From positions 1,388 through 65,387 of the forward strand of contig JADJVI010000056.1 in the NCBI GenBank assembly GCA_016710645.1: 64,000 bases of DNA. The letters run 5' to 3'. Each line of letters starts with the position of its first letter. The first letter of the stretch is position 1. Of this stretch, positions 1,588-61,600 are shown piece by piece. The notes beneath the pieces were generated by a model. It saw only the letters and a list, made by a program, of their open reading frames with translations, did no database searches and was not told where the DNA came from. A program made the position numbers and the translations under genes. The DNA comes from Actinomycetales bacterium (GTDB lineage Bacteria > Actinomycetota > Actinomycetes > Actinomycetales > Dermatophilaceae).

Positions 1588-1622
1588 GCGGCACGGCATA
1601 CCGGGCAGGTATGCCGTGCCGC
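1588..1622 (-). terminator. 15-bp perfect hairpin built from an inverted pair of the ACGGCATACC motif, downstream of the acyl-CoA ligase gene
   Basis: GCGGCACGGCATACC-gggca-GGTATGCCGTGCCGC read directly. It lies about 50 nt 3' of the stop at 1673. Confidence 0.5.
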
Positions 1623-1672
1623 AGACTCCGCGCGGAGGGTCAGTCGCGCCTCGCGAACCGCTCAGTGAGAGG

Positions 1673-3301
1673 TCAGTGGCCGAGCAATCCCAGTCGGGCG
1701 GCGGACTTCTCGCGCATTTCGATCTTGCGGACCTTGCCGGTGACCGTCATGGGGAATTCGTCGACGATCTCGACGTAACGCGGGATCTTGTAGTGCGCCA
1801 GCTTGCCGGTCGCAAAGGCGCGGATCGCCGGGGCGTCGACGGGCTGGGTGCCGGGCTTCATCCGGATCCAGGCGCAGAGCTCCTCGCCGTACTTCGGGTC
1901 GGGCACGCCGATGACCTGAGCGTCGAGGATGTCGGGGTGGGTGTAGAGGAATTCTTCGATCTCACGCGGGTAGATGTTTTCGCCGCCGCGGATGACCATG
2001 TCCTTGATCCGGCCGGTGATCTGGACGAAGCCGTCCTCGTCCATGACCGCGAGGTCACCGGTCATCATCCAGCCGTCGATGACGGATTCCTCGGTCTTGT
2101 CCGGCTGCATCCAGTAGCCGAGCATGACGGAGTAACCCTTAGTCGCGAATTCGCCGGACTGGCCGCGCGGGACGATTTCGCCGGTCGAGGGGTCGACGAT
2201 CTTGATCTCGATGTGCGGGCCGACCGGGCCGACGGTGAAGACCTTGCGGTCGAAGGTGTCGTCGGTGCGGGTCTGGGTCGACACCGGCGAGGTCTCGGTC
2301 ATGCCGTAGCAGATCGTCATCTCGTCGATGCCGGCGGCGATGACCTGCTTCATCAGTTCGGCCGGGCAGGGCGAGCCGGCCATGATGCCGGTGCGCACGG
2401 TCTCCAGCGCCGACACGTCGAACTGGCCGTCCTCGATGAGCTGCCACTCGGCGACGAACATCGTCGGCACGCCATAGAGGGAGGTGCACTTCTCGTCGCG
2501 GACTGCTTTGAGGGTGAGCGCCGGGTCGAAACCGGGTGCCGGGATGACCATGCAGGCCCCGTGCGAGGTGGCTGCGAGGTTGCCCATGACCATGCCGAAG
2601 CAGTGGTAGAAGGGCACCGGGATGCAGATCCGGTCCTGCTCGGTGTATTTGCACAGCTCGCCGACGAAGAAGCCGTTGTTGAGGATGTTGCGGTGGCTCA
2701 GCGTCGCTCCCTTGGGGAATCCCGTTGTGCCAGAGGTGTATTGGATGTTGATGGCGTCGTTGCGGTCCAGGCCGGCGGCGATCGCCTCCAGCTCCTCCTG
2801 GGTGACGCCCTCAGCGGCAGCCCACAGGTCGTCCCACGAGGCATCGCCAAGCAGCACCACCTGCTCGAGCGAGGGCACCTCGTCGCGGACCTCCTCGATC
2901 ATCGCCGCGTAGTTGCTCGTCTTGAACGACGGCGCCGACACGAGCATCTTGATGCCCGCCTGGTTGAGCACGTACTGCAGCTCGTGCGTCCGGTAGGCCG
3001 GGTTGATGTTGACGAGGATCGCGCCGATCTTGGCGGTGGCGTACTGCACGAGCGTCCACTCGCCGCAGTTCGGCGCCCAGATGCCGACCCGATCGCCCTT
3101 GACGATCCCCTTGCCGGCGAACCCGCGCGCGAGCACGTCGACGTCACGGGCCAACTCGGCATACGTCCAGCGTTTGCCGGCCACGACGTCGACCATCGCC
3201 TCGCGGTCCGGGAAGCGCGCGGCCGTCGCGTCGAGGTTGGCGCTGATGGTCTGCTCGATGAGCGGGGTGTCAGTGGGTCCGCTGGCGATGGACAACGACA
3301 T
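1673..3301 (-). CDS. AMP-dependent acyl-CoA synthetase/ligase (FadD-like)
   Basis: ORF 1673..3469. Adenylate-forming motif YTSGTTGFPKG and typical GEL/GWMMTGD/GRIKDMVIRGGENIYP blocks. Start placed at MSLSIASG (residue 57 of the track ORF), because the upstream 56 aa are Arg/Gly-rich and cover the motif hairpins. Confidence 0.9.
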   Translation of the reverse strand: MSLSIASGPTDTPLIEQTISANLDATAARFPDREAMVDVVAGKRWTYAELARDVDVLARGFAGKGIVKGDRVGIWAPNCGEWTLVQYATAKIGAILVNINPAYRTHELQYVLNQAGIKMLVSAPSFKTSNYAAMIEEVRDEVPSLEQVVLLGDASWDDLWAAAEGVTQEELEAIAAGLDRNDAINIQYTSGTTGFPKGATLSHRNILNNGFFVGELCKYTEQDRICIPVPFYHCFGMVMGNLAATSHGACMVIPAPGFDPALTLKAVRDEKCTSLYGVPTMFVAEWQLIEDGQFDVSALETVRTGIMAGSPCPAELMKQVIAAGIDEMTICYGMTETSPVSTQTRTDDTFDRKVFTVGPVGPHIEIKIVDPSTGEIVPRGQSGEFATKGYSVMLGYWMQPDKTEESVIDGWMMTGDLAVMDEDGFVQITGRIKDMVIRGGENIYPREIEEFLYTHPDILDAQVIGVPDPKYGEELCAWIRMKPGTQPVDAPAIRAFATGKLAHYKIPRYVEIVDEFPMTVTGKVRKIEMREKSAARLGLLGH

Positions 3302-3460
3302 GGTGCGGCCTTCCGGGGAGATGTACAGCGCTTGCGTGGGTAGCTCTAGTTCGCATCCCACCGCGTCGGGCAGCCTCCCGCAACCCGGCGATGGTCCCGG
3401 ATCTGCACAGGTATGCCGTCCGCCCACCCCGCGCGCCGAGCCGCTCCCCCTCTGACTGCC

Positions 3461-3494
3461 GCACGGCATACCCGATTGCTTTGGTATGCCGTGC
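3461..3494 (-). terminator. 12-bp hairpin from an inverted motif pair, 3' of the giant exoprotein gene; a third motif copy sits at ~3409-3420
   Basis: GCACGGCATACC-cgattgcttt-GGTATGCCGTGC, 13 nt after the stop at 3507. Confidence 0.5.
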
Positions 3495-3506
3495 AGCTCA
3501 CCTCCG

Positions 3507-6500
3507 TCATGCCTGCTTGCGCGACGCGAGTCGGATCCGCACGAAGATGGTCAGGGCCGCGAGAGCGGTGGCCAGAGCCAGCCCTGCCAGCGGAAGGAGC
3601 CACCACGGCATACCCGCTCGCACTGCCACGGGAAGGTCGATGCTCCGAATGCCAGCGCCGTCGAGGTACTCGATCTTGATCGTGTGCCTGCCGATCTCGA
3701 CATCGGGCGGGATGGTGACGCTCTGCGAGAGAGTGCCCTTGTCGTCGGTCCTGGCGTTCGCCAACACCCGCCGACTGCTGTTGAGGGTGATCTGCACGGG
3801 GACGGACGGCTGAAGCTGGGTTGCTCCGACGACGACCTGCTGACCGGGAGTCACAGTGCTCTCGCTGCCCACCTGAATGACTGGCGCACCGCCGATGGCC
3901 AGGACATTGATCCCCGAAGGCTCGGCCTGGTCCAGCGTCGTCGGGCCGGGTGTGGTGAGGTCCGGGTTGATGGAGCTCGACCACCCGTAAAGCGCGACCG
4001 TGATGGCGTTGTAGCCCTTGGCGTTGGGGTGCATGAACTGCTGGGTGAGCGAGGGGTAATCCGAGGTGTGGAGCTCAGCCGCCTGGGTGGCAAGCCAGGT
4101 GTCGAACGCGGAGGTCGACGCGCCCGACACCACGGTGACGCCACGGATATACGGCTCCGGATCGCAGGACGTGTGATTGGGCTGCACAGCATTGGCGGTT
4201 TGGTCCACGAAGTAGATGTGGCGCCCGCCCTTGGCTGCTTGAGTCACGGCAGCCGAGATGGCGGCGTTGAGCCGTTCGACGATCTGGTTGGCCAAGGTGA
4301 TTTCGGTCTGGCTGAATCCCGAACAGTTGCCGCGGACGTCTCTCGGCAAGACGGCGGGGTAGGCCAACACCAAGACAGGAGCCGACTTCTGTCGCTGTTT
4401 CAGCGACTCATCGTCGTTGATGATCGAGTAGATGGTTTGGTAGACGCGGCTCAGGCGGCCCAACTGGCCGGGCTGGCTCGGATCATTCAACTGAGAGATC
4501 TGCTCGAAAGCCCGCTCCCGGAACTCCGGAGTGCCGCACTCGCCCGGCTTGACGCACGCTTCCACGATGGAGGCGAAACCGACGTCGTTCCCGCCCAGCG
4601 TAAGGACGACGGCATCCGGCTTCTTGGCGAGGTGACGCAGTTGGGCGATCTGGGGCTGGTTCTCCTCCACGGTGGAGTTGGGTGCGTTCTGGCCCGACCA
4701 CATGTCCTCGATCACCGCACCTGAGCAGGCGATGAGGGTGCGACGGTCTTCGGGGAACTGCGGCAGCGTGTGGGTCTTGGTCGACTGGTGACACCGGTTG
4801 GACGCCACGTCGGTCCCCTTGACGTAGTCGCCGGCCCCTTCCCCAGCGGAGTACGAGTCGCCCATGACGACGACCCGGCCGCTCTCGGTGACCGTCTTCA
4901 GCCAGGACCCGGCAGCGTTCTTGAGGTTGTCGAGGGCGTTGACCGTGATGGTGCCCTTCGCGTCAACCGCCGACACGTCGTTACCCCACGTGGTCACGCG
5001 GTAATTGGCGGTGCCTCCGGTCAAGTCGACGCCGGCGGCCACCGTCCACGAGCGCGAGATGGTCTCGCCCGGTGCGATGTTGCCCAGCCGGAATCGCGGC
5101 GGCAGGACCGCGGGGAACATCGACTGCGAACCCTGGTCGGTGAAGGTCAGCCCGATCTGGGCGTCTTGGATCATGCGCGAGGACGGATTCGTCACCGAGC
5201 CGGTGATGGTGACCTGCTGGCCGACGATGGCCTGGCTGGGGGCTTGCGCTTTCACCTCGAGGTTGGGCACGCCCAATCTGTTGATATTGGCGTCCAGTTG
5301 AGCCGTGTCGTCGATCGGCACATAGGCGCCGCCGGTCGTGTTCGCGACGCACTGGAGTTCCTCCCGCCCGGCTGGTGACAGTTGGAAGCCCATCGCGTTG
5401 ATGGTGACGTCGAAGCCTTGCTTGGATACGTCGGCTGCCACCGAGCACGGCGGCGGCCCGCAGTTCGACTCTCCGTCGGAGACGAGCAGGATCGTGGCGC
5501 CGCGATACCCCTGCGCCATCAGTCGATCGACCACCGCACGCAGCGCCGGTCCGGTGGGCGTGTTGCCATCCGCCCCGAGCCCGTCAATGAGGGCGGTCAG
5601 CCGGCTACCGTCGCCAACCCGACCGACGGCGCCTCCGCCCGCGAAGTCCCCGGCGGCACACCCGTCGACCGAGTCTCCCCCTGGATACGTCCACAGTCCG
5701 ATCTCGGATGAGGAGGGCTGCCGCAGGACGAACTTCTCCAGCGCCGACTTGGCTCCCTCGAGTTTCACCGTGCCCGCGGCGTCGTGGTCGTTCATCGAAC
5801 CGGACAGGTCGAAGACCACGGCCAACGCGCCACCGCCGGGGGTGGAACTGCCCGTCCCGACTGGTCGGGTGCCTGTGGTGGCTTCGGCCGGTGTGGTCCG
5901 CGCGCGGTTCCACTGGGCCAGCACACTGTCGGCGATGCGGTCGAGGACTTGGGGGTTCTTGGTGCTGTTGGAGTGGCCGCACGAGTCGATCCACGCCGAG
6001 ACGAGGCTCATGATGGCCAACTGCAGTCCCGGCTCGCCGCTGAGGATCTGGTCGAGAACCGCGGAGTCGGACACCAGCTTGCCGAGAGCCGCGACTTCCA
6101 TACTGATGACGGCCCCCACCACCCCACCCCATTTCGCTCCCGACAACGCCGACCGCAGCATCGCCATCGTCTGATCGCTCGTCGTTCGACAGCTCACGTC
6201 CTTGACGCCGAGGCTGGCCTTGATGCCCTTCCGGTCGTACTCGGAGGAGAGGTAGCCGGTGGCCGAGGTGACGGGCACCACGCCATCGGTCCGGAGGTCG
6301 ATGTCGTAGAGCTTGATCCCGAAGAGGGTGCGACTGATGGTTGTCGTCGTCGAGATCATGGTGATCGGCCGCCCCGGTGCCGCTGGGGGTTTCGGGCAGC
6401 CGCTCGGCATCCAGTGCTTCTCGTCGTGACGGGCCAAGCACTTGGCTGCGTTCGACATGCGCGGAGGCAAGGTCTTGTTGGGTGACCAGAGTTCGTCCCA

Positions 6501-7130
6501 GGTTTCTTTGATCTCCGCGGGGAGGGTGTTGCCGAACGGTGAACCTTGGTAAGGAGTCCCCACGGTCACCAGCCCGCCGAAATGCTCCTCGGCAATAGGA
6601 GAGCGCGTGTATGCCGTGTCGCTCGCGAACAGCGCGGCCAGCCCGCCCATGGAGTGGGCGACGATATAGACCTTGCCATCGCCTCCCGCACGCTGATGCT
6701 GCTCTCCCACGGCGTTGACATAGCGCGCCAAGCAATCCGCGACCGTCGGTTCGGCGGCCCAGTCGGTGTTGGCGCTGGAGTAGTCGAAGGTGAGGTAGTC
6801 GAAATTGTCCGGGAGCCTCTGTTTGAGGCCTTGGATAGTGGTGTCCCATCCACTTGCCGTGCCAGTCCAACCGTGGACGAGCACGAGGGGTTGGCGATCT
6901 TTGGCGACCTGGGGTGCCGTGATCGTTCTGGGGCATTCGCCCGTCGGGCTCGTCTGCACGTCCGCCTGCACGTCCGCCTGCAAGTCCGCCTTCACATCTG
7001 CCTGGACGCTCGCCCGGACGCCCACCTGGACGTCGCCCCGGACGTCCGCCCGCGCGGCGCCCGCTCCGAGCAGCCCGAGGAGGACAACGAGCAGAACGCT
7101 CGCGGCCGAACGGACCGATTGAGGCAGCAT
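3507..7130 (-). CDS. secreted, C-terminally membrane-anchored multidomain protein: signal peptide, ADVQ repeats, alpha/beta-hydrolase lipase, vWA, CARDB/Ig-like, SGNH/GDSL hydrolase, Ig-like, TM anchor (1207 aa)
   Basis: ORF 3507..7763 trimmed to MLPQSVRSAASVLLVVLLGLLGAGAARA (residue 212). Lipase elbow YIVAHSMGG after LVLVHGWTG. vWA MIDAS VVFDLSGSMND ... LLVSDGESN. SGNH block I VVVMGDSYSAGEG and block III LTLGGNDVGF. C-terminal MPWWLLPLAGLALATALAALTIFVRIRLASRKQA. The ATG overlaps the upstream stop (TGATG). Confidence 0.8.
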   Translation of the reverse strand: MLPQSVRSAASVLLVVLLGLLGAGAARADVRGDVQVGVRASVQADVKADLQADVQADVQTSPTGECPRTITAPQVAKDRQPLVLVHGWTGTASGWDTTIQGLKQRLPDNFDYLTFDYSSANTDWAAEPTVADCLARYVNAVGEQHQRAGGDGKVYIVAHSMGGLAALFASDTAYTRSPIAEEHFGGLVTVGTPYQGSPFGNTLPAEIKETWDELWSPNKTLPPRMSNAAKCLARHDEKHWMPSGCPKPPAAPGRPITMISTTTTISRTLFGIKLYDIDLRTDGVVPVTSATGYLSSEYDRKGIKASLGVKDVSCRTTSDQTMAMLRSALSGAKWGGVVGAVISMEVAALGKLVSDSAVLDQILSGEPGLQLAIMSLVSAWIDSCGHSNSTKNPQVLDRIADSVLAQWNRARTTPAEATTGTRPVGTGSSTPGGGALAVVFDLSGSMNDHDAAGTVKLEGAKSALEKFVLRQPSSSEIGLWTYPGGDSVDGCAAGDFAGGGAVGRVGDGSRLTALIDGLGADGNTPTGPALRAVVDRLMAQGYRGATILLVSDGESNCGPPPCSVAADVSKQGFDVTINAMGFQLSPAGREELQCVANTTGGAYVPIDDTAQLDANINRLGVPNLEVKAQAPSQAIVGQQVTITGSVTNPSSRMIQDAQIGLTFTDQGSQSMFPAVLPPRFRLGNIAPGETISRSWTVAAGVDLTGGTANYRVTTWGNDVSAVDAKGTITVNALDNLKNAAGSWLKTVTESGRVVVMGDSYSAGEGAGDYVKGTDVASNRCHQSTKTHTLPQFPEDRRTLIACSGAVIEDMWSGQNAPNSTVEENQPQIAQLRHLAKKPDAVVLTLGGNDVGFASIVEACVKPGECGTPEFRERAFEQISQLNDPSQPGQLGRLSRVYQTIYSIINDDESLKQRQKSAPVLVLAYPAVLPRDVRGNCSGFSQTEITLANQIVERLNAAISAAVTQAAKGGRHIYFVDQTANAVQPNHTSCDPEPYIRGVTVVSGASTSAFDTWLATQAAELHTSDYPSLTQQFMHPNAKGYNAITVALYGWSSSINPDLTTPGPTTLDQAEPSGINVLAIGGAPVIQVGSESTVTPGQQVVVGATQLQPSVPVQITLNSSRRVLANARTDDKGTLSQSVTIPPDVEIGRHTIKIEYLDGAGIRSIDLPVAVRAGMPWWLLPLAGLALATALAALTIFVRIRLASRKQA

Positions 7131-7600
7131 CACTTGGGCTCCGTCGCGGCGATCTTCCAGACACCGGCGTCCAGCACCAGGTAGACCAGCCACTGCTGGC
7201 CTTCGGTGCTCCCGTCGATGACTGCTGACGAGGCGCTGATGGGATGGAAGGTCGCGGGGTCCAAGTGGAGGTTCTTGATTCCCTTGAGCGCGGCAAGGAC
7301 GTCGGGGCTCAACGTTGCGGTGGTGGGCAGGGCGACAGCCTTCTGCAAATCCGCCAGTTGGGCACTCTTGAGTGCGCTCTCGATTTCCTGGGCGCGGCCC
7401 TGGGGAAGAGGTGCTGCCGACGCGGTCGGCAGGGCATTCACCGGTGGAGCGGACGTCGCGCCACTCGGCGCCGCAGTGGATGGCGACGCCGATCCGGTGG
7501 GCGAGGGGGCCGGGGCGTCGCCCGTGCATCCCGAGAGGGCGAACGAGGCAGTGAGAATCCCTGAGAGCAGGCAGCAGCGGATGGCTGCCATCGCGGTCAC
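7130..7600 (-). CDS. small lipoprotein of unknown function
   Basis: ORF track, GTG start. Lipobox LTASFALSGC followed by a Pro/Ser/Ala linker. The GTGA and TGATG overlaps couple it to both neighbours. Confidence 0.6.
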   Translation of the reverse strand: MTAMAAIRCCLLSGILTASFALSGCTGDAPAPSPTGSASPSTAAPSGATSAPPVNALPTASAAPLPQGRAQEIESALKSAQLADLQKAVALPTTATLSPDVLAALKGIKNLHLDPATFHPISASSAVIDGSTEGQQWLVYLVLDAGVWKIAATEPK

Positions 7601-8730
7601 GGCTGCGACCCCAACTGCCGGGCGAGGTCCGGACCACCGATGAGGCGACCCTCGCCAAGCACCACGGTGACGCTTCCAGAGGTGCTGGTGGTGGCGATCG
7701 GTTTGGCGACGATCTCCACCAAGGTCGCCCCGGTGAGGGTGACGAAAAGGGGCGCGGGAGCACCGAACGATGCGGTCACCTTCGCGACGCCCTTCCCGTC
7801 AGCAAGGACCACGACTTCGACCTGGTCCCCCGGGTTGCCGTCATCCGGAATGCCGACCATGGCGCTCAATCCGTCCACGTGTTTGCCGACGACCCAAGCC
7901 ACCCCGCGGCCGGCCTTGGGGACTGACCAGAACGCGGAGTTGACATAGGTCTGCCCACCGAGAGCCGTGTCCCGAGTGGAGTACGAGCCGCTCTTGGGCC
8001 TGGCCTTCACCAGGAAGACGCTCGTCGACGCATCCGCGACCGTCAGACTGACCCGCGCGGGGAGGGCCGCCCCCACGGCCGGATCCGTGGCCAGCACGGT
8101 TCCGGGCGCCGCTCCCGGTTGGTAAGTCCGCGTGATCGCAACCTCGGCACCGAGGAGACTCAACTGGCGGGTTGCCTCATCAAGGCCGCCGCCGACGACC
8201 TTGGGCACGACCGCGGCACTGGAAAGCACCAGTGACACCTCTTGCGCGATGGCGCTCCCACGAGTCGGGTTCTGAGCGAAGACGCGGCCGGCGGGGCCGG
8301 CTGCCGGCGACTCGGTGACCTTGACCTTCGCCGCGGGCACCCCGAGGTCGGAAAGGATCTGCAGCGCTGCCTGCGACTCCAGCCCCCTGAGGTCGGGCAT
8401 CACGGCACCGGGCGGCAACGCAGCGGGGACCTCGACAAAGGTCGCCGACGAGCTCGGCACCGGAAGTGCGGCATCGCGGTTCGCACCAAGCGACCAGCCG
8501 AGGACGACGCCTCCACCGAGGAGTGCGATAGCCCCGAGCAACGCTCCGATAAGGGCGATAGGGATCGCGCGGCCGGGCTTGTTGTCAATCGTCGCCGCAG
8601 CGCTTGCAGGGGCTTTGCCGTCTGCTGTTTTCAACTCCCCATCCACCATGGTCGACAACGTAGTGGCGTGAGGATCGAGTTGGGGCGTTTGCTGGGCGCA
8701 AAGGCGAGGAGCCGTACGCCACTGTTTCAT
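7597..8730 (-). CDS. single-pass membrane protein with two PASTA domains and a C-terminal NPCBM-like carbohydrate-binding module (no kinase or transpeptidase domain)
   Basis: ORF 7597..8748. Start moved to MKQWRT (ATG 8730), preceded by GAGAGGA. TM segment IPIALIGALLGAIALLGGGVVLGW. PASTA-like MPDLRGLESQAALQILSDLGV and VPKVVGGGLDEATRQLSLLGAEV. C-terminal LGGQTYVNSAFW...MVGIPDD...VVVLADG pattern. Confidence 0.65.
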   Translation of the reverse strand: MKQWRTAPRLCAQQTPQLDPHATTLSTMVDGELKTADGKAPASAAATIDNKPGRAIPIALIGALLGAIALLGGGVVLGWSLGANRDAALPVPSSSATFVEVPAALPPGAVMPDLRGLESQAALQILSDLGVPAAKVKVTESPAAGPAGRVFAQNPTRGSAIAQEVSLVLSSAAVVPKVVGGGLDEATRQLSLLGAEVAITRTYQPGAAPGTVLATDPAVGAALPARVSLTVADASTSVFLVKARPKSGSYSTRDTALGGQTYVNSAFWSVPKAGRGVAWVVGKHVDGLSAMVGIPDDGNPGDQVEVVVLADGKGVAKVTASFGAPAPLFVTLTGATLVEIVAKPIATTSTSGSVTVVLGEGRLIGGPDLARQLGSQP

Positions 8731-8830
8731 TCCTCTCACTTTCCCCACGGAGATCCGCGATGCGGTGTAATCAGGCCCCGCCCCCCACTCGGGCGTGGCC
8801 CGGCAACACTGATCGTCGGGAATTGACCGC

Positions 8831-53693: not shown

Positions 53694-53802
53694 AGGTTTC
53701 CGCGAGGCGGGTATGCCGTCCCGCGCTCGCCGCGTCACGGGTTTGGCGCATTTCGCCACACTCACCAGAAAAACCCATCATGCGGCAGCTTTGCCCTTGC
53801 GA

Positions 53803-53818: not shown

Positions 53819-53832
53819 CATACACTTGTTCT

Positions 53833-55525
53833 ATGACGACGCTCGCTCTCGACCCGCAACCACTCGGCGGTATGCCGTGTGGTGGTCGGTTGGGTGGCGC
53901 GTCGGAGGGGCCGTCGGTGGCGGGGGTTTCGACCACGGTGGTGCATGCGACCTGCGATCAGATCCTGGCCCGACTGTCGTCTCCTGAGGCCGGTGTGGTC
54001 GTGTCGAGCGTGGACGTGCAGGAAGTGGATCGGCTCGCTCGTCGGGTGGAGGCGGTGCGGTTGGCGTTGGTCGCTGCAGCTGATCGGCAGCAGGTGCATC
54101 GGCGGTGTGGGCATTCCTCGACGTCGGCGTGGGTGGCCAGCGCGACGCGTTCTGGGGGTGCTGCGGCGGCTCGGGATGTGGCATTGGCGACGGCGTTGGC
54201 TGATGGGTTGGACCGCACCCGGGTGGCGTTCGAGGCTGGTGAGGTCTCTCGCTCGAACGCGGGGATCATCGCCAGGACCATGGGCAAGTTGCCCGAGACG
54301 ACCACGGTGGTGGATCGGGAGCGGGTCGAGTCGGCGTTGGTGCGGGATGCTCGCCGGTTGGACCCGGGCCGGTTGGATCGGGCGGCGAAGCTGGCGTTGG
54401 CTGCGGCGGAGAAGTCGGCGGCCGAGGTGGCCGATCACCTTGAGCAACAACTGGTGGATGAGGAGCGTCGGGCCTACCGGTTGGCGACGGTGACCATGCA
54501 GGACCTGGGGGATGGCACGACGAAGTTGGCGGCGACGTTGCCGACGCCAGCCGCGAAGATGTTGGGCAAGGTGTTGCAGTCGATGACCGCGCCTCGGCGT
54601 GACCATCTGCGCAAGGCTGCCGAGAAGGCGTTGGCGGACGGGCAAGCCCCTGCCGGCTGCCTGGACGACGGCTCCGTGGCTGCTGACTTGTTGAGCGCCA
54701 CGGGCACGCACGAGCACCCGTCGTTCGGTGCCGGTTCGCATGGCACGTCTGGCACTGGTGCCCACCCGCAGTTCGGCGCCGGCGTGAGGGGCACGGCCGG
54801 CGCGAAGGGGCGCATGGCAGCCGACGGTCGGGCGCCGTCCGGCACAAGCGCGATGCCTGCCAGCGGCGCCAGCGGACACCGGATCGAGGGTCGGAACGCG
54901 GACTGGGCCGACATTGACTGGGCTCACCGTCGTGGCCGGGCGTTGACCGAGTTGATCGAGCACCTAGACACGGAGAAGCTGACCGGGAAGGTCGCCTCCA
55001 CCGTCATCATCACCATGACCGCTGAGCAAGTGATGGGCGCCGCGAAAGCCGCCAAACTCCAGCAGACCATCCACGAGGCGACCGGGACGCTGATCGACAT
55101 GGCTCCGAGTTCCGGGGCCGCGACCACCGACACCGGGGTGTTGATCTCCACGAGTGCCGCGCGGCGGATCGCCTGCAATGCCGGGATCCTGCCGGTCGTG
55201 TTGGGCGGACCCGGACACGTCCTGGACGTCGGCCGACAAGAACGGTTCTTCACCGAGCACCAACGGACAGCCCTGGCGACGATCTACGAAACCTGCGCGG
55301 CAGAAGACTGCGACCGACCCTACGCATGGTCCGAGTTGCATCACGAGGACCCGTGGTCCAAGGGCGGATTGACCGACCTCGACCGAGCCGATCCCGCTGT
55401 GCGGCTACCACCACCGCAAGATCCACGACCCCGCCTACCACCACGAGATCACCCGAGACGGAGACACGGACGGGCGAGGTCAGGGGCATGGGGCGAAGAG
55501 CGTCCACTTCCAGCTGCGCACCTAG
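53833..55525 (+). pseudogene. DUF222 + HNH endonuclease (13E12-repeat-like family), frameshifted inside the HNH motif
   Basis: ORF 53833..55629 reads ...ELHHEDPWSKGGLTDLDRA, then goes out of frame. Shifting one frame at ~55387-55390 gives IPLCGYHHRKIHDPAYHHEITRDG...VHFQLRT*, the canonical end of this family. Confidence 0.75.
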
Positions 55526-55614
55526 CCACCCAAGGGCGAAGCCCGGCCACTCAGGGGCGGAGACCGTCCACTTCCAGCTGCGCACCTAGCCACCCACGGG
55601 CGAAGTCTGGCCAC
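55501..55614. repeat. 50-bp unit repeated with a 64-bp period at the 3' end of the HNH pseudogene
   Basis: CGTCCACTTCCAGCTGCGCACCTAGCCACCCA(A/C)GGGCGAAG(CC/TC)(C/T)GGCCAC at 55501-55550 and 55565-55614. Confidence 0.7.
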
Positions 55615-55866
55615 CCGGCTTCCGACTAGGCAGAACGTGCACCCCGACTCAAGTTCCGCCTAGCGGCGTGGTCCATGGCACGGCATACCTCGTCCCCTGC
55701 GGCGAGGTAGCGATAGGGGCTGCTACGCGACCCTGCTCACAGCCGAATTCGGCACCTCGCGGGGCACGCGGGCGAGGAACCAGCCGCCGGGCGGCGGCCA
55801 TTCGGCCGGAGCGGCCGAAAATAGCCCTCGACGTGGACCAGGGCGGCGTCGACGCCGAGCTCAGGC
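55611..55866. repeat. diverged (~80% by eye) direct copy of the 56880-57160 segment, including a dead copy of the reductase gene 3' end
   Basis: Shared strings CCGGCTTCCG(AC/GT)TAGGCAGAACGTGC and GGGCGGCGGCCATTCGGCCGGAGCGGCCG…GTAGCCCTCGACGTGGACCAGG. The two copies bracket the GNAT pseudogene. Confidence 0.65.
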
Positions 55867-55867
55867 G

Positions 55868-56813
55868 CTAGTCCGGTCGGCGGAAATCCGTGACGTCGGC
55901 CAGCTTCGTGAAGCCCGCCGACAGATAGGCCGCGATACCGCCGACGTTGCTGGTCGGAGTGCAGACGACAACGCTGGATGCGCCCATCTTCTGCAGCTCA
56001 GCGGCCGCGGCAACAGCGATCGCGCACCCGTACCCGCGACCGCGAAATGCGCGGTGCGTGCCGAGGGGTTCGATCAGGCCCGGTCGTCCCGAGCCCGCAG
56101 ACCACACCGTGGTCGCCGCCACAGCCTGGTCGTCGGTGTCGTAGGCGACAGGACAGCGACCGCTCCGGTAGGCAGGCGAGGCGGCCAGCGCATGCCACCG
56201 CTTCACCGTGAACGTCGAGTTCGGGAAGGCGGCACGCTGGACAGCCACTCGATCCCGGACGACCTCATCGCGGACGTGCTGTGCATCGACCGTCTCGATG
56301 CGCACCCCACAGTCCTGCACGGGTGCGGCGAGGTCGCGGGAGAGCGGAGTCCACGACTCGTCGGCGATCCACCCCCGACGGCTCAAGAGGCCACGCACCG
56401 CCGGCCCGTACCTGACCTCCGCGACCCCACGGCCTCTCGGCAAGACTCCGCGGTCAGAGTCGGACAGGTCGTCGACGAACCGCCTAGCGAAGAACTCGTC
56501 ATCCCCGACCTCGGGAGAGATGGCCCATCCGGATCAGGCCCTCGGCACCATCCACCATCCCGACGGCCACCAGCCGCCCATCCGACCGCCCATCTAGCCG
56601 ACCATCCGACAGCCCATCCAGCCGACCATCCAGCCGCCCATCGCTCCGCCACAGCCACAGGCCGTCGACCACCTGCTGGGCCCCGAATCGCCACAGCCAC
56701 CCGAGATCGCCCGGATGCACATGCACCGGGAGGCCGTCATGCTGCCAGGACCCGACGACATCGACGACTTCCTCCAGCATCGCAACGGTCGCCTGCTGCA
56801 CGGTGAACCCCAT
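55868..56813 (-). pseudogene. two-domain GNAT N-acetyltransferase, frameshifted between domains; carries a DGRL-type tetrapeptide tandem repeat
   Basis: ORF 56499..57101 (from MGFTVQQATV at 56813) and ORF 55868..56443 join if one base is removed near 56520-56528 (…LIRM(G/A)ISPEVGDDEFFARRFVDD…PRGRGVAEV…). C-terminal acetyl-CoA motif RGRGYGCAIAVAAA. Repeat RLDGRLDGLSDGRLDGRSDG at ~56575-56640. Confidence 0.7.
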
Positions 56814-56991
56814 GGGACCAGACAACCCCAACCCACACCGACTACGCACGCAGTTTGAGGGCGAGGCAGCGAGAGAAGCTCTGCCATCCGGCTTCCGGTT
56901 AGGCAGAACGTGCGCCCAGACGCACGTTGTGCCTAGCCGTACGTGCACCCAGCGGCCCAGGAGCGACACGGAGCGCCGCGCAGGCGAGGAA

Positions 56992-57030
56992 CAGCCGGGG
57001 TATGCCGTGCGGCACGGCATACCCCGGCTG
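56992..57030 (-). terminator. near-perfect 39-bp palindrome from an inverted motif pair, 3' of the reductase gene
   Basis: CAGCCGGGGTATGCCGTGC-g-GCACGGCATACCCCGGCTG. Confidence 0.55.
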
Positions 57031-57070
57031 TTGCAGCGTCCTGAGCGGGTCGGCAGGCGACCCGCCTCGA

Positions 57071-58123
57071 TCAGGGAACCAGACGCCCGGGCGGCGGCCA
57101 TTCGGCCGGAGCGGCCGGGAAGTAGCCCTCGACGTGGACCAGGTCGGGGTCGGCGCCGAGTTCGAGGGCCCGGGCCTTGCAGGCCTCGACGAAGTCGGGG
57201 TTACCGGCGATGAAGACGCTGTGGCCGGCCAGTGACGGGAAGACCTGGTCGAGCATCGCGGGGATGCGGCCAGACTTGGCGCCCTCGGGGGCCTCGCCAC
57301 CGGTGTAGGTCGGGACGAAGGTGAACTTGCGGTGCTTCTTCTCCCACCAGGCCATGAGGCCACGGTCGAAGACGTCGGCCTGGGTGCGCGCCGAGAAGAT
57401 CAGCGTGACGCCGAACTTGAAGCCACGCCGCAGCGCGCCATCAGTGAGGCCGAGGATGGGGGCCAGGCCCGAGCCCGAGGCCAGGCACACGACAGGCGTC
57501 TCGACGGAGGGGTCTCCGACGAAGGTGCCGTAGGGACCGGAGAGCAGCACCTGGTCTCCGACACTGAGCTTGTCGTGCACCCAGCCGCTCGTGGCCCCGC
57601 CCGCGACCTTGGTGATCAACAGGTGGATCTCGCCGTCCGGACGGGGAGCGTTGGCGATCGAGTAGGAGCGCGGCGGCGCATCGGCCGCGGCGTTGCCGAA
57701 CATGACGTATTGACCCGGCCAGTAGCGCAGGTTCTCACCAAGCGGCCGCAACTGCACCTCGAGCATCGAGGGGGTCCGCCGGATGAGGTCGGTGACGACG
57801 AAGGGGACGTTCTCGCGCGGTGGGAAGAGCTTCTGCAGCGCGTCGACGGTGCCGAACTCGATGTCGAGGGTGTTGGTCAGCGGCTTGGCCATGCACATGA
57901 GGCCATAGCCCTCGGCGCGGTCGGCCTGGCTGAGCGCCATGTCCAGGACCATGCCCTGGTCGAAGGAGCCGTCGAGGACCTTGGTCTTGCATTCGCCACA
58001 GGCACCCGCGCGGCAGTTGTTCGGCATGATGTAGCCGGCCTTTTCCAAGGCGGTGAGCACCGTGTCGCCGGCTTCGCAGGGAACCTCATGGCCGGAGGGC
58101 TGGAGGCGGATCGTCGCTGTCAT
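57071..58123 (-). CDS. 2Fe-2S ferredoxin / FAD-NAD(P) oxidoreductase (FNR-type reductase component of an oxygenase)
   Basis: N-terminal plant-type ferredoxin CRAGACGECKTKV...LMCMA. FNR motifs RSYSIAN, LLSGPYG, CLASGSGLAP. Confidence 0.85.
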   Translation of the reverse strand: MTATIRLQPSGHEVPCEAGDTVLTALEKAGYIMPNNCRAGACGECKTKVLDGSFDQGMVLDMALSQADRAEGYGLMCMAKPLTNTLDIEFGTVDALQKLFPPRENVPFVVTDLIRRTPSMLEVQLRPLGENLRYWPGQYVMFGNAAADAPPRSYSIANAPRPDGEIHLLITKVAGGATSGWVHDKLSVGDQVLLSGPYGTFVGDPSVETPVVCLASGSGLAPILGLTDGALRRGFKFGVTLIFSARTQADVFDRGLMAWWEKKHRKFTFVPTYTGGEAPEGAKSGRIPAMLDQVFPSLAGHSVFIAGNPDFVEACKARALELGADPDLVHVEGYFPAAPAEWPPPGRLVP

Positions 58124-58343
58124 GGTCCCTATCTTCGTGGTCGAGGTTCGGCGGTTGAAGCCCTTCCCGCTGTGACGTGCGCAGACCCGCCATCGCGAGA
58201 CGCGAGCGGACCGGGCGGCACGGCATACGGGTCAATCGGGGTGTCAGTCGGGGTGTCAATCGGGTTGCGACACAACCGAATGTGCCGCGGCTACACAAGG
58301 GGCGAGGGGCCGTGAAACGGGTCACTCACCGGGGTGGAACAGA

Positions 58344-58389
58344 CCGAAGGGGTATGCCGGGCGGGTGAGACCGCGGCATACCCCTTCGG
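58344..58389 (-). terminator. 16-bp hairpin from an inverted motif pair, 3' of the diiron oxygenase gene
   Basis: CCGAAGGGGTATGCCG-14 nt-CGGCATACCCCTTCGG. Confidence 0.5.
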
Positions 58390-58451
58390 GCCTTGTCGAT
58401 CAGAAGCGATCAGCGAGGATCAGAAGCAATCACGCGCCAACGAGCAGTGGA

Positions 58452-59476
58452 TCAGAACACCGGGATGATGTCGTCCATGTCGATGTCGCTGATCTCTTCG
58501 CCGGTGATACCGACCTCGGGGATCGCGGGGAAGGGGATGTTGTAGCGGTCGAGCACGCCCTTGAGGTTGAGCATGGCCGAGCGCCAGTTTTCCTTCTTCT
58601 GCTCGTACTCGGGAATGAAGAAGCCAGCCGCACGTGCGATGGCCTCGCCCTCGCGCTGAGCCGAGATGAAGTCCTCGGGGAGGTCCCAGAACTCCATCGG
58701 CGGCTCGAAGAGCACGGCCGAGAGGAACAGGTAGCCGGCGCGGATCTGCTTGGTGATGAGGCTGCGCTCGGACACGTCCAGCTTCGGGTAGTCGCGCCCA
58801 TGAGCGACATGCAGATCGCCATGTGACGGCCCTCGTCGCGGCCGATGTTGCGGAAGGCGGCCTGGTACACAGGCTCCTTCGCGCCGGCGGCCATCTGGTG
58901 GAAGATCGTCGCAGCAGCGATCTCGCCCATAAGGAAGGACGAGAAGAGGATGGCCAGCGAGTAGCGCGGGACAGCCTTCTTGTAGCCACTCCAGTAGCGG
59001 CCGCCGTTGAAGTACAGCCACTTGGTGTTCTTCTGGAGGCGCTTGCCGAGCTCGGTCTTGGGCTCGTAGGTGAGCGGGTCCGGGTGCTCGAGCAACTTGG
59101 TGATGGACAAGCCACACATCTGCTCGTGCATCTGCTCGTCACGGGTCACCGAGAAGAAGCACCGGCGGACGGCGTCCTCTTCGTGGACCTCGTAGGTCTT
59201 GATGAGAGCCTCGGCGAACACCGGCGGGGCGGATGCGTCGAAGACCGACAGCAGCGTCCACCAGTACGCGATCGCCTCGCGCTGCTCCCACGTGTAGGAG
59301 CTCGGGTCAAAGGTGTCCCAGGGGAGCTTCAGCGGGTCCCACTGGTCACGTTGGGAAGAGGCCCAGATCTCTTCCATCTTGGCTGTCTCCCGGTGCCAGC
59401 TCAACGGGTAAACGTTGGGCTGCTCGGTCTCCGGCGGCATCTCCATGCTTCCTGCGAAGCGCTCTTTGCTGCTCAT
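58452..59476 (-). pseudogene. ferritin-like diiron oxygenase, -1 frameshift after the second EXXH motif
   Basis: ORF 58430..59476 carries RDEQMHEQ and RDEGRHMAI, then turns into Ser/Arg/Pro noise. ORF 58452..59117 supplies the plausible C-terminus DYPKLDVSERSLITKQIRAGYLFLSAVLFEPP…DIIPVF. The junction is at ~58790-58800. Confidence 0.7.
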
Positions 59477-59628
59477 AGGCCCGAGAGTAGATGTCGCAAC
59501 CTAGATTGTCTAGGTCTTGACTACCTGGGTGCTCGGCCTCACACTGACCGATCGGTCGGGAAAAGGTGCGACCGACTGAATCACCCTTGAGGTGCCCTCC
59601 GAAGGGGTCTACCCAGAGCCGCTCGGGG

Positions 59629-60045
59629 CTACTCGGTGCGACCGCGCAACAGCCGCCGCATGAGCTCGACGAACTGCTCCAGGTCGGGTCCCAGCCGCGC
59701 GAAGAACGCGGTCTCGACATCGTTCTCCCGCCCGTATGCCGCCGCGAGACGCTCGCCGGTGGCGGTGAGGCGCACGGTCACCAGTCGCCGGTCGGCCGAT
59801 TCGCGGTGTCGCTCGACCAGGCCGTCGCGTTCGAGGGTGTTGAGGACGCTCGACACGGCCGCTCGCGACAGGCCCGAGTAGCGGGCGATCTCCCGCGGCT
59901 CCATCTCACCAGCGACCCATACGCAAAACATCACCCGAAAACCTGCCATGCTCCACCCGGCCTCGCGGTGCACCTGGGATTCGAGCCGGTGGACCAACAT
60001 CGTCGACAGGCGCACGAGGTTGAAGGATGCGCGCAGGGCGAGCAA
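59629..60045 (-). CDS. MarR-family transcriptional regulator
   Basis: wHTH REIARYSGLSRAAVSSVLNTLERDGLVERHRESADRRLVTVRLT. Confidence 0.85.
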   Translation of the reverse strand: MLALRASFNLVRLSTMLVHRLESQVHREAGWSMAGFRVMFCVWVAGEMEPREIARYSGLSRAAVSSVLNTLERDGLVERHRESADRRLVTVRLTATGERLAAAYGRENDVETAFFARLGPDLEQFVELMRRLLRGRTE

Positions 60046-60295
60046 GTCTGCGTCAGGGTGGGTCGTGGCGACTTGCTGGGCTGCGGCGGACTCGAACCCG
60101 TCCGACGAGCCCCGGGCTGATCATCACAACTCGCATGATGTCACCTTGACGATCCCTGTCAGGGCTCACGTCCTGACTTGGGCTCGGACTGTCCTCGTTC
60201 CGCACGCATTCCGGTATGCCGTCAGGCCGGAGGTGGCGACCGGAGGCCGAGGCGAAGGCATGGAGAGGTCGAGAGTCGGGAGGCGGGAGGCGGGG

Positions 60296-60348
60296 TGGGA
60301 CGTCGGGGAGGGACGTCGCCGGTGGGACGTCGCGGGTGGGACGTCGGG
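60296..60348. promoter_or_regulatory. four tandem GGGACGTCG units (GACGTC cores at 60299, 60312, 60326, 60340; 13-14-bp spacing)
   Basis: Read directly in the MarR / VOC-like intergenic region. Confidence 0.4.
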
Positions 60349-60457
60349 GGTGGGGAGAGGCGAGATGGGAGGGGTGGCGAGTGGGCGGCATAAGGCGGGC
60401 GTGAGCCACGTCACGTCCGCGGCGCGGCGCGATCCCACCGCCCCCAGGAGCCGCGTG

Positions 60458-60994
60458 ATGACCCAGACCTACCCGGTGTCGACCTGCCTGTGGTTCGACA
60501 CCGAGGCCGAGACCGCAGCCCGGCTCTACACCAGCCTGGTGCCCGACAGCGAGATCGGGCAGATCAGTCACTACGGCTCGGAAAACGAACACGGTGAGAC
60601 CGGTTCGGTCCTACAGGTCAGAATTCCGGCCTGGCACACAGCAATTCGTCGCCCTCAACGGCGGACCGATCTTCAGGCACTCGCCCGCGGCGTCGATCCA
60701 GGCTTCTGCCCCGACCAGGTGGAAGTGGACCGGCTCTGGTACGGGCTGCTCGAAGGCGGCGGCGAAGAGTCGCAATGTGGCTGGCTCACCGACCGGTTCG
60801 GCCTGTCGTGGCAGATCATCCCGACCCGACTGGGCGAACTCGCCGGCGACCCGGACCCCGAGCGCGCCTCCCGGGTCATCGCCGCGATGCTGCAGATGCG
60901 CAAGCTCGACATCGCCGCGCTCGAAGCCGCCGCCGACGCTCCGGCCACTGCCCCAGCCAATGCCCCGACCGACGCCCCGACCACGCAGGCGTGA
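60458..60994 (+). pseudogene. PhnB/VOC-like (3-demethylubiquinone-9 methyltransferase-domain family) gene with a compensating +1/-1 frameshift pair
   Basis: ORF 59948..60994 holds MTQTYPVSTCLWFDTEAE…GSVLQV and …VEVDRLWYGLLEGGGEESQCGWLTDRFGLSWQIIP. The conserved middle EFRPGTQQFVALNGGPIFRHSPAASIQ is in the frame of ORF 60594..61850. Switch points are ~60620 and ~60700. Confidence 0.7.
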
Positions 60995-61005
60995 ATCGAG
61001 CCCTC

Positions 61006-61549
61006 ATGCGACCAGTGACCGCAGCCCTGTTCAGCTCGATCGACGGCGCCGTCGAATCCCCCACCACTTCCAGTTTGACCACTTCGACGCTGACACGGGC
61101 GGGCTGATGACCCAGGCCCTCAGCGGTGCCGACGCGGTCGTCATGGGCCGACGCACCTACGACGAGTGGTCGCAGTACTGGCCCGCCAACACCGACGACG
61201 CCGGCGACTTCATCAATCCGATCCGTAAGTACGTCGCGTCGAGCACGCTCACCGACCCACTCGCGTGGCAGAACTCGACCATCATCCCCGGCGACGCCGT
61301 CGACTCGTCCGCGAACTCAAGCAGACCGAGGGTGCCGGCATCGTCGTCACCGGCTCGATCTCGCTGGTGCGCCAGCTGCTCCTGGCTGGGGTCCTCGACC
61401 GGCTCACCTCATGGTCCACCCGGTCGTGGCCGGCGCAGGGCTGCGGCACCTGTTCGACCCGGACGAGAAGACCATCCGCCTCGAGCTTCGTCGACCACAC
61501 CGTCACGGTCCCGGGCAACGCGATCCTCACCTACGCATTGCGCTCCTGA
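61006..61549 (+). pseudogene. RibD_C / dihydrofolate-reductase-like family gene broken by about four frameshifts
   Basis: Family-typical segments sit in different track frames: MRPVTAALFSSIDGAVESP (60775 ORF), HHFQFDHFD…RRTYDEWSQYWP…KYVASSTLTDPLAWQNSTII (60594 ORF), LVRELKQTEGAGIVVTGSISLVRQLL (61265 ORF), MVHPVVAGAGLRHLFDPDEKTIRLEL (61126 ORF), VDHTVTVPGNAILTYALRS (61265 ORF). Confidence 0.7.
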
Positions 61550-61565
61550 GCGGCCTGGCCTGCAG

Positions 61566-61600
61566 CCGCCTGTATGCCGTGTGACACGGCATACAGGCGG
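61566..61600 (+). terminator. 17-bp-arm palindrome from an inverted (variant) motif pair
   Basis: CCGCCTGTATGCCGTGT-g-ACACGGCATACAGGCGG, 17 nt after the stop at 61549. Confidence 0.5.

Follow-up and report, generated by a model that had tools for sequence, protein, structure and literature searches.

Introduction

To our knowledge, genome-shaping words that mark DNA as self are experimentally understood only in the Neisseriaceae and Pasteurellaceae, and we know of uptake sequences from no more than two families, both Gram-negative. The DUS of Neisseria (GCCGTCTGAA and its dialects) is a short oriented word found about once per kb on both strands, in genes and in spacers; it is lineage-specific and under-represented in foreign DNA. 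Its copies are spaced approximately 1.1-1.5 kb apart, one copy is sufficient for function, and many copies arrive via recombination (PMC2397512). Close inverted pairs of DUS form long-stemmed, T-poor terminators, and in Neisseria a DUS is found in approximately 55% of terminators (PMC1852404). Most copies of the USS, whose core is AAGTGCGGT, lie within genes and show biases in frame and orientation (PMC2346458), and USS pairs are also found in terminators (PMC1852404).

HIP1 (GCGATCGC) of the cyanobacteria is an exact octamer that occurs about once per kb, is imposed on coding sequence and is lineage-specific; it is a palindrome without strand orientation. We know of no explanation for HIP1 after 30 years, and a link to methylation or restriction was reportedly proposed by Elhai in 2015. 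The Chi sites of RecBCD/AddAB are asymmetric octamers that are read on one strand and have a role in marking self DNA; the known ones are over-represented on the leading strand. REP/BIME with RAYT and TRIT, a conserved terminator-like hairpin of Mycobacterium tuberculosis, are examples of U-tract-poor palindromes that lie at the ends of genes, often convergent ones; they are extragenic units of 20-50 nt, conserved over their full length.

Here we report the existence and abundance of an oriented octamer, GTATGCCG, in a member of the Dermatophilaceae, a family to which major phosphorus-removing bacteria of wastewater belong. We describe its orientation statistics, conservation, mutational origin and positional bias, and the independent origins of the hairpins that it forms. 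The window is the whole stretch of 64,000 nt analysed here, for which a preliminary description had claimed at least 12 inverted pairs, 12 of them listed, with a shared core.

Results

An oriented octamer throughout the genome

In the host genome (Dermatophilaceae, 3.47 Mb, 69% GC, 91% complete), GTATGCCG is the commonest 8-mer. The whole genome holds 4,836 copies, or 1.39/kb, divided equally between the strands (2426 forward and 2410 reverse). The excess over composition is approximately 40-fold for the 8-mer and approximately 500-fold for the 9-mer GTATGCCGT in the window. The consensus around the word is GGTATGCCGTG, and the word with its flanks can be written as (G)GTATGCCG(T/C)(G). The flanks carry weak information at positions -1, +8 and +9 and none beyond; the exact 11-mer has 1,160 copies, and single-mismatch variants of the core are at background. 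Approximately 74% of the copies, with a frame bias among them, lie in coding sequence as called by a crude home-made caller, on which the CDS shares and stop distances given here rest. As a short oriented word occurring about once per kb on both strands, in genes and in spacers, GTATGCCG resembles an uptake sequence.

The forward and reverse counts are balanced in every contig and are uncorrelated with GC skew or gene strand; a 400-kb stretch of the congener G007 gave 241:275. An apparent replication polarity was an artefact of one-strand match listings, in which a palindrome also appeared on '+' only, and direct counts were balanced. The word is sparse in low-GC stretches (0.4-0.7/kb versus 1.4-1.6/kb elsewhere) and in IS copies (0.58/kb), and overall the copies are distributed more evenly than a Poisson process would give (variance-to-mean ratio, VMR, 0.87). 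The Illumina adapter contains GTATGCCGTCTTCTGCTTG, but an adapter artefact was ruled out by the differing flanks and by the presence of the word in dozens of independent genomes. A literature search on GTATGCCG and on actinobacterial uptake sequences returned nothing relevant and no paper describing the word.

Spacing along each strand

Around a given copy, the density of same-strand copies is approximately 0.6x within approximately 800 bp, whereas the density of opposite-strand copies stays at baseline. Neighbouring copies alternate in orientation in 3096 of 4770 cases, compared with 2407 +/- 34 (z=20). The alternation was replicated in G007 and G120, control words lacked it, and the two orientations behave as separate sets. 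This same-strand repulsion within approximately 0.8 kb is new here; for DUS it is not described in the literature that we found. Between the convergent (FR, GTATGCCG...CGGCATAC) and divergent (RF) arrangements of neighbouring copies no asymmetry was seen, although a simple directional-uptake model would predict one.

Mutational origin and conservation

At 71 of 80 sites the word was identical in G007, compared with 42% for control 8-mers. Gains and losses between congeners consisted of one or two substitutions, with no insertions. The word accounts for 26% of TAT and 68% of ATA codons; it is kept against codon preference, and its imposition is at the DNA level. A single change, of the CpG C to T, converts GTACGCCG into GTATGCCG.

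The word is carried by all 18 sampled congeners and by about half of 71 genera of the family; the counts in 12 other families of the order are 0-4. Genus g43 uses the flank dialect GTATGCCGCG, with C instead of T at +8; such flank dialects differing between genera are new here. Sharing among relatives, absence outside the clade and dialects are likewise traits of uptake sequences. In two word-poor genera no other word takes its place at a comparable level, and GTACGCCG in word-poor genera shows no orientation alternation.

Where the word is abundant, CGTAC is depleted 7x and CGTACG 17x, an association that is also new here. Across the family, word count and CCGTACGG count are correlated with rho -0.5, and the link between CGTAC and the word has exceptions in both directions. 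The GTACG precursors of GTATGACG, GTATGTCG and GTATGGCG are depleted, yet these three words show no enrichment. Since other GTATGNNN words are not enriched, an origin through general GTACG>GTATG conversion or deamination was ruled out.

Inverted pairs form hairpins at gene ends

All 12 inverted pairs of the preliminary description are present in the window (Table 1), and the core that they share is GTATGCCG/CGGCATAC. The shortest perfect stem is 9-10 bp (14913) and the longest 26 bp (11465). In RNA folding, all 12 fold strongly, at -14 to -52 kcal/mol; the ten compact hairpins span -14.2 to -51.8 kcal/mol with z of -2.9 to -14.8 against shuffles, while the long-spacer pairs at 30585 and 53210 reach a z of only about -2.3. 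On neither strand is any of the 12 followed by a T-run. The Rfam matches in the window are three tRNAs only.

Table 1. The dispersed word and its inverted pairs in the window (dG in kcal/mol; z against shuffles).
Feature	Coordinates	Strand	Structure	dG	z	Gene context	Congeners
dispersed word GTATGCCGT	1..64000	both strands	74 copies (0.15 expected by chance), mostly single and intragenic				
hairpin	1588..1622	.	15-bp perfect stem, 5-nt loop, CGGCATAC...GTATGCCG	-32.5	-8.3	51 nt past stop (1673) of minus-strand AMP-binding enzyme gene	G007: stem identical, loop alone differs
hairpin	3461..3494	.	12-bp stem (15 bp at 93%)	-21.6		13 nt past stop (3507) of minus-strand 1209-aa gene	outside blocks aligned with G007
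hairpin	11465..11519	.	26-bp perfect stem, 3-nt loop, GTATGCCG...CGGCATAC	-51.8	-14.8	between convergent genes 11013-11432 (+) and TctA 11544-13040 (-)	G015 and G007: 21-bp stem; five others: non-homologous hairpins instead, or none
hairpin	14913..14942	.	9-10 bp stem, 7-nt loop	-14.2		51-80 nt inside 3' end of minus-strand ORF 14862-16451 (crude gene calls)	conserved in G007
hairpin	22062..22087	.	11-bp stem, 4-nt loop	-20.2		begins 4 nt past stop of plus-strand permease gene 19761-22058	
wide pair	30585..30645	.	12-bp outer stem, 37-nt interior	-33.0	-2.4	straddles stop (30626) of plus-strand gene 29757-30626	
hairpin	31807..31844	.	~17 bp; 34-nt sub-family GTATGCCGTCCGCYC-N4-5-GRGCGGACGGCATAC	-34.7		divergent spacer, tRNA-Arg (31611-31683, minus) / PEPCK (32040, plus)	conserved in G007
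hairpin	52030..52073	.	14-15 bp stem	-32.3		50 nt past stop (52123) of minus-strand PALP-family gene	limited to G000, G015 and G007 among 16 congeners
wide pair	53210..53272	.	10-bp outer stem, long interior	-30.7	-2.3	divergent spacer between 52123-53055 (-) and 53346-53693 (+)	
hairpin	56992..57030	.	18-19 bp stem (21 bp in one count), 1-3 nt loop	-37.9	-8.0	41 nt past stop (57071) of minus-strand ferredoxin-reductase-like gene	
hairpin	58344..58389	.	16-bp outer stem, structured interior	-37.8		downstream of minus-strand ORF ending 58430/58452	conserved in G007, whereas left flank has indels
hairpin	61566..61600	.	17-bp perfect stem, 1-nt spacer	-31.3		terminal region of frame-disrupted genes	conserved in G007

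Pairing of the word exceeds chance genome-wide. Inverted neighbours with a gap of at most 20 nt number 194, compared with 95.5 +/- 9.4 for random positions, and those with a gap of at most 80 nt number 450, compared with 284 +/- 16. Paired copies are a minority: approximately 19% lie in pairs at most 80 nt apart and approximately 6% in tight hairpins, of which the genome has approximately 150. Most of their stems measure only 8-12 bp, which corresponds to the word with its consensus flanks. Compared with G007, the hairpin stems are conserved while the flanks diverge. A sub-family of approximately nine hairpins, including the one at 31807-31844, has a longer palindrome of 34 nt in common; no tRNA linkage of this sub-family was found.

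Tight hairpins are densest in convergent spacers (0.47 per kb), followed by co-directional spacers (0.14), divergent spacers (0.11) and CDS (0.02), a profile like that of word-free hairpins. Word hairpins lie a median of 23 nt past the upstream stop, similar to the word-free ones (39 nt), which have no T-tracts either. Among hairpins in co-directional spacers, 4 of 36 with the word and 7 of 110 without it have at least 5 T within the 10 nt that follow. Relative to transcription, word hairpins have no preferred orientation (20:16). The word is present in 24% of all perfect hairpins (stem of at least 10), a share inflated by the perfect-stem criterion, which favours stems that the word keeps free of mismatches.

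A canonical intrinsic terminator has a GC-rich stem-loop followed by a U-tract; here the stems are found and the U-tract is absent. The density in convergent spacers and the short distance past the stop agree with the earlier characterisation of the pairs as terminator-like and U-tract-less, and suggest that the hairpins are most likely U-tract-less transcription terminators or actinobacterial-type mRNA 3'-end structures. In position and folding, they match the gene-end terminator hairpins formed by inverted pairs of DUS/USS. That termination cannot be the only role, as was also claimed, is borne out by the predominance of single intragenic copies and by the 14 of approximately 149 tight hairpins that lie in divergent spacers.

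Non-homologous hairpins at one orthologous spacer

In the convergent spacer after TctA, three species have a GTATGCCG...CGGCATAC hairpin. In one species, the orthologous spacer has a hairpin of different sequence and opposite arrangement. Of the other species, two have word-free hairpins, in one case with an adjacent single copy, and two lack a hairpin. Such non-homologous hairpins at one orthologous spacer rule out a mobile unit of the REP/MITE type there and support independent recruitment.

Discussion

From these patterns we infer, with slightly more confidence than doubt, that stop-proximal stem-loops, probably terminators, have recruited a strand-oriented DNA word under an uptake- or recombination-type drive. 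The hairpins would be ordinary stop-proximal stem-loops, into whose stems the word was recruited independently and many times. Acting at the DNA level, the word arises through point mutations, mostly of the codon-favoured near-cognate GTACGCCG (Tyr-Ala, Ala-Tyr), and a strong sequence-specific drive or selection would then hold it within genes as well as between them. A spacer hairpin may be the cheapest place for one copy per strand, because selection for pairing mirrors the copy in one arm into the other. The force would most likely be a biased transfer or recombination signal for self-DNA, of the uptake-sequence type and read on single strands; each strand has a separate set of evenly spaced copies.

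The preliminary description had likened the pairs to those of DUS/USS, and by comparison with published accounts the resemblance holds feature by feature (PMC1852404, PMC2397512). With DUS, the word shares density, orientation, lineage-specific dialects, under-representation in foreign DNA, close inverted pairs in long-stemmed, T-poor hairpins and a spacing near 1.1-1.5 kb. With USS it shares a hyper-abundant 9-mer that is mostly intragenic and paired in terminators (probable ones here), and USS is thought to be maintained by drive, as proposed here. There are also differences. DUS/USS specificity is graded, and USS has AT-rich flanking tracts, whereas GTATGCCG has three weak flank positions and an all-or-none core whose one-off variants are not enriched at all. 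Its host is a Gram-positive actinobacterium without type IV pili, in which a search for PilT found none, and we know of no ComP-type receptor for this host. The genome does encode ComEA-ComEC, DprA and two Tad-type loci; ComEC occurs in 150 of 151 family genomes, word or no word, and being near-universal it is uninformative and was dropped as a gene tracking the word. Copies of GTATGCCG arise mainly via point substitution, unlike many Neisseria DUS, which arrive via recombination (PMC2397512).

Two readings concern the hairpins themselves. If they were REP/MITE-type mobile palindromes, that is, copies of a small element spread by RAYT or another transposase, hundreds of palindromic elements in spacers and a 34-nt palindrome shared by one sub-family would be explained. 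However, 74% of the copies are single, intragenic and frame-biased, the flanks are unconserved, gains occur via substitution rather than insertion, the orthologous spacer carries non-homologous hairpins, and no Y1/RAYT transposase gene was found in the 91%-complete genome. REP/BIME and TRIT are full-length conserved extragenic units, whereas only 8-11 nt are shared here. The preliminary claim of independent recruitment of the core, rather than one mobile unit, is therefore upheld, and the mobile-palindrome reading is largely refuted, retaining almost negligible probability. Alternatively, the hairpins could be DNA structures (cruciforms or single-strand hairpins) that present the duplex word to a protein in replication, conjugation or transformation. 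The lack of orientation preference relative to transcription would fit, as would hairpins in divergent spacers and inside ORFs, long perfect stems of up to 26 bp conserved exactly across species, and common inner arms in the nine-member sub-family. Yet a symmetric hairpin terminates without needing orientation, the location profile is the same as for word-free hairpins, and both the position 14-33 nt after stops and the 4-fold preference for convergent over divergent spacers are as terminators predict. We consider this reading very unlikely.

Two others concern the force that maintains the word. It might be a HIP1-like octamer kept by methylation, restriction, a mismatch-repair bias or an abundant chromosomal protein; it would then have no DNA-transfer role, and hairpins would arise incidentally where spacer palindromes happen to tolerate it. 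The sharp 8-bp specificity with one-off variants at background looks enzyme-like, the depletion of CGTAC and CGTACG fits restriction avoidance or repair bias, the word is GTACGCCG with a CpG C->T change and is anticorrelated with CCGTACGG family-wide, and no gene of the transformation set tracks it. On the other hand, GTATGCCG is asymmetric whereas HIP1 is palindromic, terminator pairing is not known for HIP1, general GTACG>GTATG conversion is excluded, a search for Vsr found none, the CGTAC link has exceptions both ways, and same-strand-only repulsion is unexpected for a double-stranded binding or methylation site. On balance we regard a HIP1-like word as rather improbable. Less probable still is a Chi-like signal, read on the unwound single strand by an AdnAB-type helicase-nuclease during end resection, marking self DNA and needed on both strands for two-ended breaks. 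Strand-specific recognition would match an independent, evenly spaced set per strand, and the 8-nt length and the depletion in foreign-looking DNA also fit. But Chi orientation is replication-skewed and the word shows no replication-linked polarity at all, its excess is two orders larger and far beyond any known Chi, and Chi sites are not known to pair into terminator hairpins. RecBCD-Chi itself is ruled out, as RecC was absent from G000 and three congeners and had no association with the word across the family.

An uptake model does not predict the coupled depletion of CGTAC, which points to a possible contribution from restriction, modification or repair. It is possible, though doubtful, that GTATGCCG is the first self-DNA word of Gram-positive Actinobacteria, an uptake- or recombination-type signal read as ssDNA, with same-strand exclusion over approximately 0.8 kb, and derived from GTACGCCG in CGTAC-purging lineages, with pairs that double as terminators. 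If true, the DUS/USS principle would extend to a new phylum and to a new, strand-wise mode of reading. The Dermatophilaceae show the same genomic footprint as DUS/USS, including pairs recruited into hairpins at terminator positions. In the literature searched, no DUS/USS is reported to have strand-wise spacing, a clear synonymous precursor word or a coupled avoided word such as CGTAC here. About a quarter of the genome's perfect gene-end hairpins contain the word, and predictors of terminators and repeat annotators will misread them unless it is recognised. The family has cultured members, so the role of the word is testable.

Two of the window hairpins have a third copy of the word nearby, at 22128-22136 for the hairpin at 22062..22087 and at 31734-31742 for the one at 31807..31844.

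Abundance and origin of the word

The oriented 8-mer GTATGCCG (reverse complement CGGCATAC; hereafter the word) was the most frequent 8-mer in the draft genome (G000; 3.47 Mb, 69% GC, 61 contigs), occurring 2,426 times on the forward strand and 2,410 times on the reverse (1.39 copies per kb). In the window, the 9-mer GTATGCCGT occurred 74 times against 0.15 expected. The word is sharply bounded: core variants with a single mismatch were at background level, and outside the eight core positions information was found only at -1 (G, 0.59), +8 (T, 0.62) and +9 (G, 0.57), the exact 11-mer having 1,160 copies. Judged by our crude, home-made codon-usage caller, whose gene calls are approximate, coding sequence holds 74% of the copies (1.25 per kb) and spacers the rest (2.0 per kb). 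The dominant frames are xxG TAT GCC Gxx in sense (1,432 copies) and xCG GCA TAC in antisense (1,055). Because 26% of TAT codons and 68% of ATA codons lie inside the word, it is imposed against codon preference. An artefact of the Illumina adapter, which has GTATGCCGTC in common with the word, was rejected, because the flanking sequence is different and the word recurs in dozens of independent genomes.

Word counts per 5 kb were slightly more even than Poisson, and density fell to 0.4-0.7 per kb in low-GC stretches. The longest word-free stretches reach 11 kb, compared with an expected maximum of about 6 kb, and are mostly of low GC (0.59-0.67); one of them, which has no called genes, probably corresponds to an rRNA operon.

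The spread of the word follows lineage. The PEPCK of the window is 81% identical to that of an activated-sludge Dermatophilaceae MAG and 75% to that of Intrasporangium. All 18 sampled congeners contained 110-1,900 copies of the 10-mer GGTATGCCGT, and twelve other families of the order contained 0-4. Among 71 sampled genera of the family, about half had 50-650 copies and the rest background numbers, consistently within genera. The flanks have dialects, with one genus (g43) favouring GTATGCCGCG over GTATGCCGTG. No substitute hyper-abundant word was found in two word-poor genera.

The copies turn over mainly by point change. The window was aligned with the congener G007 over 47.9 kb (about 85% identity); the two agreed exactly at 71 of 80 word sites, compared with 42% of all 8-mers. 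Substitutions account for eight of the nine differences and for all but one of the seven sites present only in G007. Replacing the CpG cytosine of GTACGCCG by T gives the word, and this replacement is synonymous in both dominant frames. GTACGCCG occurs at 0.67-0.72 per kb in word-poor genomes and at 0.02-0.045 per kb in word-rich ones, and the PEPCK genes of word-poor relatives have CTACGCCG, GTACGCCG and similar sequences at orthologous word positions. A general conversion of GTACG to GTATG was ruled out, as GTATGACG, GTATGTCG and GTATGGCG showed no enrichment.

Hairpins at gene ends

All twelve inverted pairs reported in the preliminary description were found in place; one arm of each contains GTATGCCG and the opposite arm CGGCATAC. 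Folded as RNA, on either strand, they gave -14 to -52 kcal/mol, the ten compact hairpins having z-scores between -2.9 and -14.8 relative to shuffles. As putative terminators they would lack a U-tract, since a T-run followed none of the twelve on either strand. All seven of the hairpins that fall in blocks aligned with G007 keep their stems there; their flanks diverge or have indels, and changes fall at stem ends or in loops.

Positions of individual features in the window, and of two of the longest word-free stretches, on contigs C50 and C42
Position	Feature	Observation
11465-11519	Word hairpin	Longest perfect stem of the twelve, 26 bp
14913-14942	Word hairpin	Shortest perfect stem of the twelve, 9-10 bp
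17197-17248	Word-free palindrome	25 bp, perfect (GTTTTGGTGTGTCGGATTGTGCGCC / complement), 2-nt spacer; between two minus-strand genes; AT-rich to an unusual degree for this genome
30585 (start)	Word pair, long spacer	z only about -2.3 against shuffles
31807-31844	Word hairpin	Member of the 34-nt palindrome sub-family
53210 (start)	Word pair, long spacer	z only about -2.3 against shuffles
53790-55650	Multi-copy insertion sequence	27 BLAST pieces in this genome, dozens in G007; word at just 0.58 per kb in its copies
C50:211164-222305	Word-free stretch	
C42:3783-8258	Word-free stretch	

Genome-wide, inverted neighbour pairs were in excess, with 450 at gaps of at most 80 nt (284 +/- 16 expected) and 194 at gaps of at most 20 nt (95.5 +/- 9.4 expected). 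There are about 150 tight word hairpins, most with stems of 8-12 bp formed by the word and its own consensus flanks. These were densest in convergent spacers (0.47 per kb), followed by co-directional spacers (0.14), divergent spacers (0.11) and coding sequence (0.02). The location profile was the same for word-bearing and word-free hairpins. Among perfect hairpins (stem of at least 10, loop of 3-12), 96 of 406 contained the word, as did 34 of 93 with stems of at least 16 bp; these figures overstate the share, since stems that contain the word are kept perfect by it. In co-directional spacers, the median distance after the upstream stop was 23 nt for word-bearing and 39 nt for word-free hairpins. 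Both kinds had few T-tracts, and word orientation relative to transcription was unbiased (20:16). The contig pairs C5/C7, C36/C40 and C47/C48 have near-identical or reverse-complement stretches in common, word hairpins included, which reflect either redundancy of the assembly or true repeats.

Independent recruitment of the word into hairpins

The preliminary description proposed that the core was recruited independently into each hairpin, the rival being the copying of one mobile palindromic unit. Orthologous spacers support independent recruitment. In the convergent spacer 3' of the TctA gene, the 11465 hairpin is common to G000, G015 and G007. At the same place the hairpin of G003 differs in sequence, and its word copies lie at the outer ends of the stem, arranged the opposite way. 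The hairpins of G010 and G009 lack the word, which in G010 stands once next to the hairpin; G178 and G002 have no hairpin. Likewise, the hairpin 3' of the PALP gene occurs only in G000, G015 and G007. Since spacer hairpins are non-homologous, flanks are unconserved, turnover is by substitution and no Y1/RAYT gene was found in G000, a mobile palindromic unit is ruled out. About nine hairpins, one in the window and eight elsewhere in the genome, do share a 34-nt palindrome, GTATGCCGTCCGCYC-N4-5-GRGCGGACGGCATAC; their outer flanks differ, and no linkage to tRNA genes was found.

Two local observations concern these spacers. The 11465-11519 stem is 5 bp longer in G000 than in its two closest relatives, G015 and G007; a clustered change of GGTCG to TGGTG in the right arm now mirrors the left arm, as if a quasi-palindrome had been perfected by templating. 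Seven congeners (loci L146-L158) have a single CGGCATAC copy 3' of PALP, 3-4 nt 5' of the next gene's ATG, at the expected position of the ribosome-binding site and conserved despite variable upstream sequence.

Strand-wise spacing

Forward and reverse copies were balanced in every contig and tracked neither GC skew nor gene strand, so no replication polarity was found. The orientation of neighbouring copies nevertheless alternates about 2:1, out to about 1 kb: 3,096 of 4,770 neighbour pairs alternated, against 2,407 +/- 34 with permuted orientations (z = 20; z = 16 for gaps above 200 nt). By pair-correlation, the alternation arises because same-strand copies are depleted, to about 0.6-fold within about 800 bp, whereas the density of opposite-strand copies is that of the baseline beyond 200 bp and reaches about 1.7 times baseline within 100 bp. 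It was repeated in 400 kb of G007 and in a genome of another genus (G120; 164 versus 96, p = 3e-5), and codon-driven control words did not show it. We infer that each orientation forms a separate, self-spacing set, as would be expected of a signal that is read on each strand separately.

Candidate readers and known systems

The genome encodes ComEA-ComEC, DprA and two Tad-type loci; PilT, RecC and Vsr were looked for and not found. ComEC is present in 150 of 151 family genomes, with or without the word. RecC occurs in 45 of the 151, unrelated to the word, which together with the missing polarity argues against a Chi of the RecBCD type. In word-rich genomes, CGTAC is also 7-fold and CGTACG 17-fold rarer than in word-poor members of the family; GGTACC and TGTACA show no such depletion. 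Across the 151 genomes, CCGTACGG counts dropped with rising word counts (Spearman -0.48, inflated by the non-independence of relatives), and the ratio of CCGTACGG to a control word over four word-count classes was 0.95, 0.45, 0.43 and 0.28. All 15 genomes with at most 18 copies of CCGTACGG had the word's 10-mer at least 37 times, and 14 had it at least 128 times, clearly more often than the word-poor class with its 20 copies or fewer; the anticorrelation has exceptions in both directions. As a pure uptake model does not predict the CGTAC depletion, a restriction, modification or repair component may be involved.

Our literature search found no paper describing GTATGCCG. Among known systems, the DUS/USS uptake sequences are the closest match. 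In Neisseria, about 55% of terminators contain DUS, with long stems and fewer thymines (Kingsford et al., PMC1852404); inverted DUS pairs act as terminators, a single DUS is enough for function, and the spacing of 1.1-1.5 kb matches conversion tracts (Treangen et al., PMC2397512). By its likeness in genome features, the word is a candidate member of this family. It differs from DUS/USS in that its host is Gram-positive and lacks type IV pili, its core specificity is all-or-none, its copies originate mainly by substitution, it is spaced strand by strand in the Dermatophilaceae genomes measured, and it is linked to the depletion of CGTAC.
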